A stretch of DNA of 64,000 nt from an uncultured Verrucomicrobiae bacterium (GCA_963769025.1 CAVYKI010000002.1:288001-352000), one strand, 5' to 3'. Positions 2,862 to 51,183 are shown, numbered from the stretch's first letter. Numbers and translations: made by a program. The notes: generated by a model not told the origin, from the sequence alone.

Positions 2862-4244
2862 TCAGGACTTCGAGGACGCCTTGAGGGGCTTGCCTTCGAT
2901 CTTCCGGTAAAGCGTCGCCATGCTGATGCCGAGCGTCTTCGCGGCCTTCTCGCGGTTGCCGGAGCTGCGCTTGATGGTTTCCTCGATGAAGCGCCGCTCC
3001 TGATCGCGGATGAAGGCATCCAGCTTCTTGCCGACCGGCATCGCGCCGTCGCCGCCTTTTCCGCTGCCGGACGGGCCTTCGAGGAGCTGCGGCGGGAGAT
3101 CCTTCACGAGGATGAGATCCTCGTCGCACAGCGCGCTCGCGCGCTCGATGGCGTTTTCCAGTTCACGCACATTGCCCGGCCAGTCGTAGCCCTGGAGCGC
3201 CTCGATGGCCTTCGGGTCGATTTTCATCGCGCGCGGATTCGGCCCGGTGGCGGACTTTTTCAGGAAATGCTGGACGAGGAGCGGGATGTCCTCGGGCCGG
3301 TCGCGCAACGGCGGCAGCTCGATGGGAATGACCGCGAGCCGGTAGTAGAGATCCTCGCGGAACTTGCCGTCCTTCACCTTGTCGAGCAGCGACTCGTTCG
3401 TCGCGCCGAGCACGCGCACATTGATGGGCAGCGTCTTCGTGTCGCCGACGCGGCGGAGCTGGCGCTCCTGGAGCACGCGGAGCAGCTTCGTCTGGAGCGG
3501 CAGGGCCATCGAGTTCACCTCGTCGAGGAAAATGGTGCCCTTTTCCGCCTCCTCGAAGAGCCCCGCCTTGTCCGACACCGCACCGGTGAAGGAGCCCTTC
3601 TTGTGGCCGAACAGCTCGCTCTCGAGCAGGTTCTCCGGCAGCGCGGAGCAGTTGATGGCGACGAAGGGATGATGCTGCCGGCTGCTGTTGAAATGCAGCG
3701 CCCGCGCGACGAGCTCCTTGCCCGTGCCGCTCTCGCCCTGGATCAAAATCGTCGAGTCGGTGTCCGCGATCTTGCGGATGAGGTGATAGACCTCGTCCAT
3801 CTTCGGCGACGTGCCGATGATGTTCTCCGGGTTCGTCGCGCGCTTCACGACCTTCTTCAGCGTGTCGCGCTCCTTCGCCGTGTCGGAAAACTCGATGACG
3901 TGCTTCACCCGCGCCTGCATCTCGGAAATCTTGAACGGCTTGCGGATGTAATAGCGGGCACCCTCGGCGATGGCCTTTTCCGCGATCTCCTCGTTGCCCT
4001 GCCCGGTCATCAGGATCACCTCGCAGCTCTCCAGCGCCGCCTTGACCTGCCGCAGGATCTCGAAGCCGTCCACCTTGCCCATCTTGATGTCGCTGATGAC
4101 GAGCGCCGGCGCGATGGTCTCGATCTGTTCGAGCGCCTTCTGGCTGTTGGTGAAGGGGAACGTCTCGTGGCCCATCTCCTTGCAGGCTGTGACGACGAGT
4201 TCGACGATGTTCGGTTCATCGTCCACGATAAGGATCTTGGCCAT
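2862..4244 (-). CDS. Sigma-54-dependent response regulator (NtrC/AtoC family: receiver, AAA+, Fis-type HTH)
   Basis: MAKILIVDDE receiver start; Walker A GESGTGKE; ESELFGHKKGSFTGA (GAFTGA variant); FLDE; WPGNVRELEN; HTH AAKTLGISMATLYRKI. Confidence 0.95.
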   Translation of the reverse strand: MAKILIVDDEPNIVELVVTACKEMGHETFPFTNSQKALEQIETIAPALVISDIKMGKVDGFEILRQVKAALESCEVILMTGQGNEEIAEKAIAEGARYYIRKPFKISEMQARVKHVIEFSDTAKERDTLKKVVKRATNPENIIGTSPKMDEVYHLIRKIADTDSTILIQGESGTGKELVARALHFNSSRQHHPFVAINCSALPENLLESELFGHKKGSFTGAVSDKAGLFEEAEKGTIFLDEVNSMALPLQTKLLRVLQERQLRRVGDTKTLPINVRVLGATNESLLDKVKDGKFREDLYYRLAVIPIELPPLRDRPEDIPLLVQHFLKKSATGPNPRAMKIDPKAIEALQGYDWPGNVRELENAIERASALCDEDLILVKDLPPQLLEGPSGSGKGGDGAMPVGKKLDAFIRDQERRFIEETIKRSSGNREKAAKTLGISMATLYRKIEGKPLKASSKS

Positions 4245-44102: not shown

Positions 44103-44838
44103 ATGAAAACCCTCATCGTCCCGCTGCTCATGCTGCTTTGCCTTCACGCTTTCGCGGCGGAAAAGACGCCGCTGCCCACTGCCCACACGACCCGGAACAT
44201 CGAAGGATGGAACATCCGCGTGGATGACCGCCTCTTGCGCGGCGAAGGCACGGCGGTCGGCGAGCGTGCGCTGAAGCTGCTCGCGGCGCGGCTGGTCGCC
44301 ATCGCCATCATCGTGCCGGAGCCGGCACTCGCGAAGCTGCGCGCCATCACCATCCAGCTCGATCAGGACTACGGCGACCTGCGCGCGATGCAGTATCACC
44401 CGAGCGCCGGATGGCTGAAGGGAAAAGGATACAGCGAGCATCTCGCGAAGTGCGCCCACATCCCCGACGCGGAGCAGTTTCTCTCGCCATTTGAAAACCA
44501 CCGCATGCCGTGGGTCGTGCTGCACGAGCTTGCGCATGCCTTTCACGACCAGACGATCGGCTTCGACGACCCGCGCGTGATCGCCGTGTGGAAGAAGTTT
44601 TGCGACAGCGGGAAATACCAATCCGTCCTCACCAGCCCCGGCCACATGCGCGAGCATTACGGGCTGACGAACCAGAAGGAGTTCTTCGCCGAGATGACCG
44701 AGGCGTACTTCGGCTCGAATGACTTCTACCCGTTCGTCACCGGCGAACTGAAGCAGGCCGAGCCGGAGACCTTCGCCCTCCTCGCAGAAATCTGGGGCCC
44801 GCTGCCCGAGCCGCTCCAAACCGTCGTCAAAACCGTGA
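44103..44838 (+). CDS. Secreted zinc metallopeptidase (HExxH...E); stop probably TGA at 44836-44838, missed because of an indel
   Basis: Signal peptide; VVLHELAHAFH; YGLTNQKEFFAEMTEAYF; ends near EIWGP. Confidence 0.75.
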
Positions 44839-44993
44839 AACACATCCCGGCCCTCCCCGCCGCTTCCGCATTTGCGTGGATGGGTGTGGCGCATGCGGAG
44901 GCAATGCGCTTGGCGCAAATTGCGAGGCATGCGCTTTGTCGTTTGCAGCGGATGTGCGTCCTCCGCGTGAATCCTGAACCTCAAAACCTCCCC

Positions 44994-46476
44994 ATGAAAC
45001 AACCCGCCTCTCCGATCACCCGCCGCGCGTTTGTCGCGCAGTCCACCGGCGTCCTTGCCGCAGCCGCCTGGATGCCGGAACTTGTCGCGCACGCTGCGGA
45101 CGCCGGTGGCGCACTCCATCAGGCGATGGGCACGCGCGCGGGAGAAGTGACCGACCGCAGTGCGATCGTGTGGACGCGGTTCACGGCGGCAGCCGTGCGA
45201 AATAACGCAGGCAAGGTGATTCCCGGGCGGGTGAAGGGCGCGAAGAAGGACAAGCCCGCTGAAGTGAGCGTCCCCGTGGAGCAACTGGAGGGCGCGTGCC
45301 CCGGTGCTCCGGGCCGCGTGCGTCTGCGATATGGGACCAAGGCGGATCTGAGCGATGCCCTGACCACGGACTGGGCCGAGGTCACGGAGGAGACAGACTT
45401 CACGCACCACTTTGCATTGACCGGTCTGAAGCCCGGCACTGCCTATCACTATGAGAGCGAGACTGCGGGCGCGGATGGCAAATCGCAAGGGAGCTTCCGC
45501 GGCGAGTTCCGCACGGCGCCGGCGGCGGATGTCCCGGGTGATTTTCAGTTTTGCGTGATGACCTGCCAGGGCTATCCCGACCGCGGGCATCCCGATGGGC
45601 ACGCGATTTATCTCTCGATGCTAGCGCTAAAGCCGTCGTTCGCCTGCCTCACGGGCGATCTTGTCTATTATGATAACGATGAGCCGCGCGCCACTTCGCC
45701 CGCGCTGGCGCGCTATCATTGGCAGCGCATGTTCAGCCTGCCGCGCCTCGTGGAGTTCAACCGCCACGTCGGCACCTATTGGCTGAAGGACGACCACGAC
45801 ACGCTGAACAACGACTCGTGGGCCGGGGCGAAGATGGGCACGCTCACTTTTGCCGAGGGCCAGCGCATTTTCCGCCAGCAGGCGCCGATGGGGGAGGGGC
45901 CCGGCTACCGCACCTTCCGCTGGGGGCGCGATCTGCAGATATGGCTCACCGAAGGCCGTGACTTCCGCTCGCCTAACAAGATGCCCGACGGCCCGGACAA
46001 GACCATCTGGGGCAGCGGAGCAGAAGGAGTGGTTCCGGCGCACGGTGAAGGAGAGCGACGCGACGTGGAAGGTGCTCGTCAGCCCCACGCCGCTCGTCGG
46101 CCCCGACCGCGGGGGCAAGAACGACAACCACAGCAACGAAGGATTCCGCCACGAGGGCGACGAACTTCGCGCGTGGCTGAAGGCGAATGTCCCGGACAAT
46201 TTCTTCGTCATCTGCGGCGACCGCCACTGGCAATACCACTCCGTGCATCCTACGTCGGGCCTGCACGAGTTCAGCGTCGGCGCGGCGAGCGACCAGCACG
46301 CCGGCGGCACTCCCGGCGAGGATCCGCGCTATCACCGCTTCCATCGTGTCAAAGGCGGCTTCCTCTCGGTGAATTTCAGGCGCGACGGCCGCAGGAGCGC
46401 GATCCTTTTCCAGCACCGCGATGTGGATGGGAGCGTGGTCTATGAATGGACCGCGCAGCGCGAGGCGAAAGCGTGA
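44994..46476 (+). CDS. phoD: Alkaline phosphatase D family metallophosphatase, Tat-exported; frameshift near 46012
   Basis: ITRRAFV Tat motif; GEVTDRSAIVWTR; GDLVYYD; KDDHD; CGDRH. Confidence 0.82.
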
Positions 46477-46530: not shown

Positions 46531-46579
46531 GGAAGATGGAAGATGGAAGATGGAAGATGGAAGATGGAAGATGGAAGAT
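46531..46579 (+). repeat. Perfect heptamer tandem array (GGAAGAT)x7; a degenerate block follows at 46670-46690
   Basis: Read directly; the second block is TGAAAAT GGAGGAT GGAAAAC. Confidence 0.95.
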
Positions 46580-46736
46580 GGAGGCCGCATTCCTGTTCGC
46601 CTGACGGGGGCGCTTGATGGGGCGGGGAGGGGAGTGGAGTGTCGCAGAGTCGGCTCAGCTTGGCGTGGGTGAAAATGGAGGATGGAAAACGACAAGTGCA
46701 CCCGGCACGATGCGCGGCCTCACCGAACAAACTGCA

Positions 46737-47281: not shown

Positions 47282-47308
47282 TTTTCCATTTTCCATCTTC
47301 CATCTTCC
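47282..47308 (-). repeat. Inverted copy of the heptamer array (ATCTTCC-type units) downstream of the four helix bundle gene
   Basis: TTTTCC ATTTTCC ATCTTCC ATCTTCC; reverse complement is GGAAGAT GGAAGAT GGAAAAT GGAAAA. Confidence 0.88.
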
Positions 47309-49411: not shown

Positions 49412-49552
49412 ATGCTCTATACAATCGCCCTCATTCTCGTGGTGCTCTGGCTCATCGGCTGGCTCGGCTTTAACCTCCTCGGAGGCTTCATCCACATCCT
49501 CGTCGTCCTCGCCATCATCTCCATCGTCATGGCGCTGGTGAAGAAGGCCTGA
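49412..49552 (+). CDS. lmo0937-family small membrane protein
   Basis: MLYTIALILVVLWLIGWLGFNLLGGFIHILVVLAIISIVMALVKKA. Confidence 0.88.
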   Translation: MLYTIALILVVLWLIGWLGFNLLGGFIHILVVLAIISIVMALVKKA

Positions 49553-49638
49553 CCCTTCCCGGCGCGCAAAACGCCCACGCCCGCCCTCCCACGGGAGCCA
49601 GCAGCGAAGCGGTCTCATCTCCCCACACCGCACCCCGG

Positions 49639-49911
49639 AACGAAGCCTGCATCGCCCGGAAGGAAGACTGCATTCGGGAAAAGAAAGACAGAATTCCGGA
49701 AAAGCAAGACTGCATCGCCCGAAAGCAAGACTGCATCGCTGAAAAGGAAGACAGAATCCCAGGAAAGGAAGACTGCATTCGGCAAAAGGAAGACAGAAAC
49801 GCGGAGAAGTAAGACTGCTTTCCCCAAAAGTAAGACTGAATCCGCGGGAAGTAAGACTGCTTTTCCCAAAAGTAAGACTGCTTTTGGCAAAAGTAAGACA
49901 GAAAACGACAT
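49639..49911. repeat. Tandem array of 13 x 21-bp units: conserved AAGNAAGACWGM plus 9 variable nt
   Basis: Units start at 49639, 49660, 49681 ... 49891 with exact 21-bp spacing and no indels; the first unit is degenerate. Confidence 0.95.
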
Positions 49912-50240
49912 TTTCCGGGACGAAAATGTGCCATGCAAGTGTGAATCAGGCGAATGCAACAGACTATCGCCCAAGCATTTGCCAGCGAACCGGCTGGTTT
50001 AGAGTTCTCCACCGCCCCCTTCCCGTCCTCCGTCGAACCGCTGTTCCACGGTTCCACAGTCCCAGGCTTTTCGCTCATTTCCCCCGCCCATGCGGCGGCG
50101 TTCACCGAGGAGGGCGGCTTTACGGAGCGGCTGCACCGGATCCGGAGTGAACGGAGAAAGCACGGTGCCCGATGAACCGGACCACGCCTGCGCCACACAG
50201 GCAAGAGGCGCACGACGGCAGGCGGGTCGGCGTGGTGGTT

Positions 50241-50313
50241 TCACGATATTGCAACGCACTGGTTAGAAGTTCCAAAACGCATCTTTGAGAACGAAGGCAT
50301 CTCAACAGTGATA
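50241..50313. promoter_or_regulatory. Putative enhancer (UAS) sites for a sigma-54 activator
   Basis: TCACG-ATAT-TGCAA at 50241-50254, ACGCA-TCTT-TGAGA at 50277-50290, TCTCA-ACAG-TGATA at 50300-50313; same pattern as the sites at 4278-4341. Confidence 0.5.
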
Positions 50314-50381
50314 GCCGGATGGCCCAAGGCGGCGGCGAGAATTGGGCGCGTATATAGGGCTTCGGAGTGGAGCAAGGCATC

Positions 50382-50397
50382 TGGCACGGCATTGGCT
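50382..50397 (+). promoter_or_regulatory. Sigma-54 (-24/-12) promoter candidate for the FN3 and collagen genes
   Basis: TGGCACGGCATTGGCT: GG-N10-GC spacing is exact, one mismatch to TGGCACG-N4-TTGC. Confidence 0.62.
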
Positions 50398-50475
50398 ATA
50401 TGCAGAAAACAGGAACCGGGTGAGTGCCTGGTGCCGTTCAAATACACAATACAAAACCAAGGAGACACCGACCCC

Positions 50476-51183
50476 ATGCCACACTGGAACGATGGAACCC
50501 GTTGGGACAGCGGGGCGCGTTGGGCGCCGGCGGCTCCTGTAAAGAAACCAAAATACACCATGGCAATCATCGTCACAAACACAGCCAAGCTGCCCATCCC
50601 GGAAAAACTCCTGAAGGGGCAGGAAATCATCACCATGAGCACGTCGAATCCAAACGTGCCCGGAAACGCCACGATCCTCGCGGCATTTAGCAATGCACAG
50701 GAAGACCTCGTTGCCGCCAACAACGCCCACATCGCCGCCGTGGGCGCATTGAAAAACCTGATGGACCAGCGCGACGACGCGCTCGCGGTCTGGAACAATG
50801 CGCTGAGCAATCTCGCCTCGTTTACGGAGAGCGCCACGCAGGGCGACGGGACCAAGATCACGAGCGCGGGATTTGGCGTGCGGAAGGGGCGCACGCCCAA
50901 GCCCCCGCTCGAAGCGCCGGTCAACCTGCAGGCAAAGACCAATGGTTCGCCCGGCGTGACCAAGCTGTCTTGGAACCCGCTCATCGGGGCCGTGACTTAC
51001 CTTGTTCAGCAGACCCCGGCGCCCGTGGAGGAACCGGTGTGGACGCAGGTGGCCAGCCCCACAAAGTCCTCCTGCGAGACCAACGGCATCGAACCCGGAA
51101 AGACCTACTGGTATCGCGTCGCCGGAGTGGACGCACAGGGCCAGGGCCCGTGGAGCGACCCCGCGTGCCGCCCTGTGATGTAA
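50476..51183 (+). CDS. Fibronectin type III domain protein with helical N-terminal domain, no signal peptide
   Basis: APVNLQA...LSWNP...YLVQ...[26 protein letters not shown]. Start at 50476 ([16 protein letters not shown]) or 50560 (MAIIVTN). Confidence 0.85.

Follow-up and report, generated by a model that had tools for sequence, protein, structure and literature searches.

Within a 64-kb window (the whole stretch of DNA analysed, 64,000 nucleotides from an uncultured Verrucomicrobiae bacterium) lies a short non-coding array, designated A1, in which a constant core alternates with a variable segment. The question raised by this locus is what kind of element A1 is, and what holds its unit at exactly 21 bp. 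A1 is a real, non-coding, polar minisatellite and belongs to a family of two arrays. We further propose, with a probability of about 0.45, that it is a helically phased minisatellite that works at the level of DNA, the core of each unit being a putative docking site on the same face of the helix. The positions of A1, its paralogue A2 and the neighbouring features are given in Table 1.

Table 1. Features of the A1 and A2 loci; positions are those of the window unless a contig of the genome (G000) is named.
Feature	Position	Strand	Remark
Small DUF5670 membrane-protein gene	49412..49552	+	87 nt upstream of A1
Candidate extra unit, nearly fully decayed	49618..49638	+	may be a further unit at the left edge of A1; GC 0.76, 5/21 to consensus
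A1 array	49639..49911	+	13 head-to-tail 21-bp units; unit 1 degenerate
A1 last unit plus tail	49891..49928	+	sole flank common to A1 and A2
Inverted repeat in A1 tail	49909..49928		CATTTTC-N6-GAAAATG, 7-bp arms
23S_rRNA_IVP / four-helix-bundle gene remnant	50086..50175	+	last 29 codons; between A1 and FN3 gene
FN3 protein gene, then collagen-like gene	50308-51183	+	downstream of A1
A2 array	G000:C2:421835-422170	same as A1	16 units with the A1 core, 84 kb downstream

Structure of A1 and its paralogue A2

An exact 21-bp period over 13 units and a constant core had been claimed for A1 in an initial annotation, and both were confirmed. The register was unbroken from the first unit to the last, and Tandem Repeats Finder reported periods of 21, 42 and 63. 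Autocorrelation gave an identity of 0.68 at a lag of 21, against 0.21-0.29 at lags 3-20, and no sub-period of 3 or 7 nt was detected in A1. Units 2-13 share the invariant positions AAG.AAGAC.G, followed by 9-10 variable nucleotides. The core AAGNAAGACWGM was matched 12 times in the window, always on the + strand and in exact 21-bp steps from 49660 to 49902, compared to an expectation of 0.05 and a largest count of 1 in 100 shuffles. As first described, the leftmost unit (49639; AACGAAGCCTGC) has degenerated, all five units on the right have T at N (AAGTAAGAC), and the remaining units carry G, A or C at N. The variable 9-nt parts, laid out in steps of 21, grouped into the subfamilies that had been named, and the AAG-NAA-GAC frame proved to be interrupted as reported, by 6 stops. 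The + strand of A1 is 65% purine and 14% T. With 13 units of exactly 21 bp, A1 falls within the definition of a minisatellite (head-to-tail units of about 10-100 bp). No two adjacent units are identical (best pair 19/21), and for this reason A1 is absent from the counts of exact duplications given below.

The genome to which the window belongs (5.34 Mb in 13 contigs, 83% complete) was searched with the core, and a second array, A2, was found; A1 is hence not a one-off, and the family numbers two arrays in this genome. Outside A1 and A2, the 9-mer core had 41 matches on the forward and 38 on the reverse strand, about the chance level of ~33 per strand estimated from base composition. The two arrays have certain spacer variants exactly in common, for example ATCGCCCGA, and share a right end of 38 nt, composed of a special last unit and a tail ending in AAAATG, beyond which similarity fades. 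Their left flanks have nothing in common. A2 contains six consecutive units that differ solely at N, as well as three 42-bp double units. Because A2 has such near-identical runs and A1 has no identical neighbours, A1 is regarded as the older and more diverged array, and its core is intact although this is so.

Both arrays are polar. Unit GC falls from left to right, with A1 going from 0.76/0.67 to 0.33 and A2 from 0.81/0.67 to the same value, and identity to the consensus is 5-12 of 21 at the left edge and 15-21 within the array bodies. The left side decays into GC-rich DNA and the right end is sharp. The directional growth suggested for A1 is supported by this gradient of GC and decay, which recurs in A2.

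Per-position information was calculated over the 29 units of A1 and A2. Positions 1-3, 5-9 and 11 were invariant or nearly so, and variation was confined to positions 4, 10 and 12 and the block 13-21. Among units 2-13 of A1, with changes counted as extra states per column, the nine core columns held 0 changes and the other 12 columns at least 19; the chance that an even spread would give this pattern is (12/21)^19, or ~2e-5. The core was also retained in the diverged paralogue A2. On the strength of these column counts the A1 core looks to be under constraint, although its constancy may instead stem from recent amplification of a master unit combined with a mutable, CpG-rich spacer, and not from selection. 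The spacers of the two arrays were weakly palindromic (mean arm 2.95, against 2.51 when permuted; 20 of 2000 permutations reached 2.95), a signal that is overstated because the units are related to one another.

A repeat period held in common by unrelated arrays

A1 is one of ~20 repeat arrays in its genome, nearly all with a unit of 21 or 42 bp. Tandem Repeats Finder reported 188 loci in the genome, with period 21 in 40 of them and period 42 in 11; periods 18, 24 and 27 were found in 12, 15 and 10 loci, respectively. When the count was limited to loci with at least four copies and periods of 10-69 bp, 17/26 had a period of 21 or 42, and 2 more had 20 or 22. Exact tandem duplications, defined as at least two perfect copies, were counted for periods of 17-69 bp. 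There were 17 runs at 21, 9 at 42 and a single one at 24, and each of the remaining 50 periods had none. The loci behind the exact duplications comprised five arrays of 21 bp, four in which all runs were of 42 bp and one heptamer array that also scores at 21, together with four of 24 bp, one of them a 12-mer array. The genome also holds two 22-bp arrays and one 41-bp array. By sequence, its arrays can be divided into at least seven families with no relationship to one another. The multi-copy arrays are mostly intergenic and have a lower GC than the DNA on either side (0.46-0.66 against 0.60-0.67).

The same preference was seen in G014, the best-assembled congener. On its contig C1 (356 kb), 14/21 loci had a period of 21, 22, 42 or 43, and among arrays with at least four copies 11/13 had a period of 21, 22 or 42, the other two being a 7-mer and a 10-mer array. 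By inspection, none of the G014 arrays resembles any array of the genome that carries A1. Within the genus, then, it is the period that is conserved and not the sequence: in two congeneric genomes, most non-coding arrays of at least four copies have a unit of 21, 22 or 42 bp, whatever the sequence. A1 alone would be an ordinary species-specific minisatellite, and it is the period rule across arrays that deserves attention. A literature search covering listed titles and abstracts and selected papers found no description of a 21/42-bp period shared among unrelated bacterial non-coding arrays. In the accessible parts of two related papers, one reports an enrichment of tandem repeats in the intergenic regions of prokaryotes, with nothing found there on a 21-bp period or helical phasing (PMC12418385), and the other concerns heptamer repeats (PMC4692102). 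Such arrays break short-read assemblies and are thus under-counted in most metagenome-recovered genomes.

The unfavoured periods include multiples of 3 (18, 24, 27, 30) and of 7 (14, 28, 35). The favoured periods 21 and 42, with near-misses at 22, 41 and 43, fit whole turns at 10.5 bp per turn. As 22 and 41 are multiples of neither 3 nor 7, the geometry of the helix explains them better than counting in codons or heptamers would. Within the units, a 10.5-bp harmonic of A/T versus G/C was not enriched, either in 19 families of 20-22 bp (Fisher p = 0.70) or in 11 arrays of 41-43 bp (p = 0.19); three of these 11 overlap 21-bp arrays included in the former set. The simplest shape signal, A/T-phased curvature, is thus absent, and this counts against a docking function. 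There was a hint of a 7-bp harmonic (p = 0.07 in the families of 21 bp and 0.00014 in those of 42 bp), which derives for the most part from two arrays whose true unit is 21 bp. Hairpin units were enriched, with stems of at least 5 bp in 5/18 families against 1.2 expected (6/1000 shuffle runs reached this number); they are absent from the A1/A2 family and are not universal in the class. Flanking sequences were not shared between different arrays, save between two 42-bp arrays, and no neighbouring gene family recurred among the arrays. Several arrays adjoin fragments of transposase, toxin-antitoxin or restriction-enzyme genes.

Further observations concern individual arrays of the genome. Two 42-bp arrays with hairpin units (GGGGGAGACTCCCCC) have a 280-bp flank in common, in opposite orientation (G000:C9:552487-552906 and C9:1246839-1247204). 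The only IS200-like (Y1_Tnp) gene of the genome (C9:555357-555686) is 2.5 kb from the first of these, a layout like that of REP sequences and their RAYT gene. An ORF with MmeI target-recognition and C-terminal domains (G000:C9:210859-211653) lies 154 bp from an 18-unit 21-bp array; enzymes of the MmeI type cut ~20 bp from their site.

Relatives of A1 itself were sought more widely. A three-unit core pattern had 0 matches in 60 relatives, 29 of them of the same genus, which counts against the core being a docking site. BLAST of the whole A1 intergenic region against the 29 congeners matched the DUF5670 gene and the four-helix-bundle gene remnant only and never the array. Three cores at 21-bp spacing were found in more than 118 stretches among 185,579 species genomes, and the 80 stretches examined were all unrelated 21-bp arrays, many of them coding heptads. 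L080 and L084, among the matches listed, also carry CTG behind the core and lack both the remainder of the unit and the tail. Metagenome scans returned 0 matches to the right-end motif and 37 to a core-pair pattern, all of the latter chance pairs with no array, and blastn of the array against 72,556 plasmid and 50,697 phage records gave no match. A single assembly contains the array, and among public sequencing runs a part of the stretch was located in one DNA run and in no RNA run. Three soil DNA runs yielded one short-read contig, which stops inside A1 at 49668, and none that bridges the array. Because short-read assemblies break inside the array, the absence of relatives is weak evidence; most of the relatives are assemblies of hundreds of contigs. 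A separate 5-unit 21-bp array was seen in a Verrucomicrobiales MAG (L071, ~3001-3105; JAISBF010000159.1), each unit of which contains TTATCCAC, which we take to be the DnaA-box word; this array is possibly a phased array of DnaA boxes.

Known systems, a docking array and its rivals

A1 resembles a CRISPR array in combining a repeat with a variable segment and in having a polarity with a degenerate far end. It differs in its 21-bp period, its 12-nt core and its 9-nt 'spacers', which are diverged copies of one sequence, whereas CRISPR arrays have repeats of 23-50 bp and unique spacers of similar length. The earlier statement that A1 is not a CRISPR array was upheld, as no Cas1 (PF01867) was found in the 83% complete genome in a search that detected its positive controls.

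Judged from the accessible part of its description, the closest known system is BrickBuilt of Porphyromonas gingivalis, a MITE with 23-nt units present in 19 copies per genome, with long leader and tail segments and terminal inverted repeats (PMC4596501). On the same account, BrickBuilt and A1/A2 are both intergenic, spacerless tandem arrays with a conserved first and a variable second half of the unit. BrickBuilt's own features of 1 to ~23 units, dispersed arrays, some with the tail flank only, and a species-specific family can be listed among the likenesses. As far as that part of the description goes, A1/A2 differ in the 21-bp unit, in numbering two arrays only and in having the 38-nt right end as their sole common flank. 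A MITE of the BrickBuilt type was rejected, as A1/A2 have no conserved leader and tail, no terminal inverted repeats (no inverted pair brackets A1 or A2) and no set of many dispersed copies.

Bacterial intergenic minisatellites, or VNTRs, include the loci used for MLVA typing. A1 is like them in its head-to-tail units of tens of bp, its non-coding nature, its internal duplications and its higher-order periods of 42 and 63 bp, and differs in that its period is common to many unrelated arrays of the same genus. Plasmid iterons of the R6K, RK2 and pSC101 type are direct repeats ~two turns apart that all lie on the same side of the DNA and consist of a conserved part, for recognition, and a variable spacer. 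The exact 21-bp spacing of A1 recalls them in geometry only; A1/A2 have no rep gene or plasmid context, comprise more units and occupy two chromosomal loci. A likeness to REP/BIME elements and their RAYT transposases is limited to some 42-bp arrays of the genome, which have strong hairpin units, one of them near the Y1_Tnp gene. The A1/A2 unit itself has no significant hairpin, its best stem being 3 bp and matched by 335/500 shuffles. A sponge RNA of the CsrB/RsmZ type was also considered and rejected: the position that would form GGA is G in only 13/29 units, and there was no fold signal and no Rfam match. Sequence prediction gave no consensus promoter or terminator at the array.

Among the roles initially suggested for A1, phased protein-binding sites fit best, given the invariant core and exact two-turn spacing; the stricter label 'iteron-like' did not hold, with no rep gene and no plasmid or phage match. 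In the arrangement that we favour, the 21-bp unit corresponds to exactly two turns of B-DNA, its 11-nt core AAGnAAGACnG held constant and its 9-10-nt spacer drifting freely. Units of two turns bring the 12-13 cores to face one side of the helix, and the constant core together with the whole-turn lock can be read as identical sites on that face. Each core would serve for the docking of a protein, or of a filament made of protein, and the row of cores would be a possible track for cooperative binding or wrapping. The array would change through duplication or loss of one, two or three units, being homogenised and AT-rich near the sharp right end, where growth would occur, and decaying into the GC-rich background at the left.

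The unit length of every array would then be dictated by one and the same two-turn ruler, either a protein or some feature of how duplications arise. Unless the partner reads shape and not sequence, a separate one would be required for each of the at least seven unrelated families. An extension of the docking proposal, which we consider unlikely, is that a 21-bp ruler in the form of a filament- or chromatin-like protein, or of a repair or replication activity, makes or maintains unrelated 21/42-bp arrays throughout the genus, the A1/A2 core being the one that engages it best. Should a protein or process indeed set the length, it would add something new to the biology of bacterial chromosomes and, if true, would be an analogue of the role supposed for the nucleosome in fixing the unit length of eukaryotic satellites.

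The main rival to a docking function is a two-turn bias of slippage or recombination that leaves functionless arrays as a neutral or selfish by-product, the core remaining constant through recent right-hand amplification and faster decay of the GC/CpG-rich spacer. Such a bias would suit the species-specific sequences and fast turnover of the arrays, the lack of a recurrent neighbour gene and of helical A/T phasing within units, and the placement of the arrays in variable regions, beside a truncated gene, ISL3 and rve transposases, ParE toxins and an IS200-like gene. The identical-unit runs and 42-bp double units of A2 are typical of recent slippage. A steady mutational bias might, however, leave some isolated two-copy 21-bp duplications, and none was found outside established arrays. 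It also sits poorly with nine core columns free of change in an old, diverged array that has at least 19 changes elsewhere, and with a core that is AT-rich in a 64% GC genome in which the decayed left units drift to GC. On balance we consider a functionless origin somewhat unlikely. A double-stranded DNA target is favoured over RNA by the whole-turn lock common to unrelated arrays, and an RNA would have no reason to keep a two-turn period in common with them. It is nevertheless conceivable, if improbable, that the purine-rich strand gives rise to an RNA without structure, which might be the 3' portion of the upstream gene's transcript; its 12-16 copies of the motif would capture an RNA-binding protein or a small RNA in the manner of a sponge, or the RNA would be cut into unit-length pieces. 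A1 and A2 each lie downstream of a gene on the same strand, the motif strand is 65-67% A+G and T-poor, and predicted folds of the two strands were no better than shuffles (z -1.19 and -0.80), the value of -1.19 agreeing with a largely unstructured RNA. A1 terminates in a stem-loop, but this tail stem is not retained in A2, the left flanks of the two arrays are unrelated, and neither a sigma-70-like promoter nor a terminator was found at the array. Rfam gave 5 matches at chance level (E 0.6-8.4), all far below the gathering scores, the CsrA word GGA is not conserved, as N takes all four bases, and a search of the 83% complete genome revealed no gene with a Piwi domain.

Two further readings carry little weight beside a docking array. 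If A1 and A2 were the iterons, or a centromere-like site, of a plasmid or other mobile element that has integrated, and were bound by its Rep or partition protein, this would explain direct repeats ~two turns apart with a conserved and a variable part, and also the ISL3 transposase next to A2 and the truncated gene next to A1. We regard this as very improbable, in view of the lack of a Rep, Par or integrase gene beside either array, of similarity to the plasmid and phage records and of terminal inverted repeats, and of 13-16 units, which exceed the usual number, in two arrays that lie in direct orientation 84 kb apart. A coding heptad, [R/S]-K-T-[A/E]-x-x-x, translated by read-through of the DUF5670 TGA in A1 or from an ATG in A2, is hardly credible, and the suggestion of a coding repeat did not survive. 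Both arrays leave the heptad frame open. In A1 it shares its phase with the DUF5670 gene upstream, in A2 it forms part of an ATG-started 217-codon ORF, and it places the variable core positions N and W at third codon positions. Open frames mean little here, because four of the six A1 frames contain no stop and a fifth contains a single one. All open frames had a GC3 of 0.33-0.57 and a codon adaptation of 0.22-0.36, with no codon periodicity in the variable positions. The heptad frame had a GC3 of 0.48 and a codon adaptation of 0.33-0.36, which equals or falls short of the lowest value among 1,263 gene windows of 90 codons (1st percentile 0.41, minimum 0.34); the reference consisted of 1,005 long ORFs selected for a GC3 of at least 0.78, with a mean codon adaptation of 0.68. 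The heptad frame furthermore has no start codon in A1, contains rare codons throughout, continues into downstream tails that differ between A1 and A2, and matches no Pfam family.

Genomic surroundings

A link between the array and the FN3 and collagen-like genes had been suggested and was not borne out: the neighbours of A2 differ, and no gene family is common to both arrays. A2 is preceded by a methyltransferase gene and a hairpin with 24-bp arms, and beyond it come a repeat of the CCGTCCCA type and the gene of an ISL3 transposase. Pfam searches of the ORFs flanking A1 and A2 identified no Rep or other recognisable DNA-binding family, and tblastx of 9 loci revealed no common gene order. The gene remnant between A1 and the FN3 gene shares 83% identity with the last part of an ORF of 264 residues in a congener (G001). 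As only its 29 last codons are left, the segment that bears A1 occupies the place of the body of that gene. In congeners, the full 23S_rRNA_IVP gene (L035 796-1590; L031 1501-2251) contains an internal inverted pair of arrays of 9-bp period, ATGGACNNN then GTCCATNNN; in L031 the gene is split over two frames.

Several small repeats were recorded near the arrays. The hairpin before A2 (L009 4560-4631; G000:C2:421559-421630) lies directly after the methyltransferase gene, and its arms are 96% complementary and carry AGGAAGGC octamers. The CCGTCCCA-type repeats, of 7-8 bp, occur beside A2 (L009 5328-5448) and at G000:C13:19499-19583, beside two other arrays of that contig. The 15-mer AAATTTCGACACCCC, together with a C-rich stretch, is found in the right flank of A2 (C2:422276) and in that of an unrelated 42-bp array at C3:868806 (C3:869200), which are its only exact copies in the genome. 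The pattern CATTTTC-N(3-6)-GAAAATG occurs 5 times in the genome (G000:C2:337909, C9:210747, C12:519559, C12:519599 and C2:194603), and four scrambled arm pairs, searched as a control, gave 0. One of these inverted repeats is beside A1, one is beside another 21-bp array and two are inside a 42-bp array.

In comparisons of gene order, 5 well-assembled congeners yielded no copy of the patatin gene. A 780-codon ORF of the window (44103-46445) has a peptidase-like N-terminus and a PhoD-like C-terminus and matches two separate congener genes on different contigs; it may be a fusion or a read-through. A perfect heptamer array, (GGAAGAT)x7.4, lies at 46531-46582, and its reverse complement, (TTCCATC)x3.6, lies ~700 bp beyond at 47284-47308, so that the inverted pair brackets a segment of the window.
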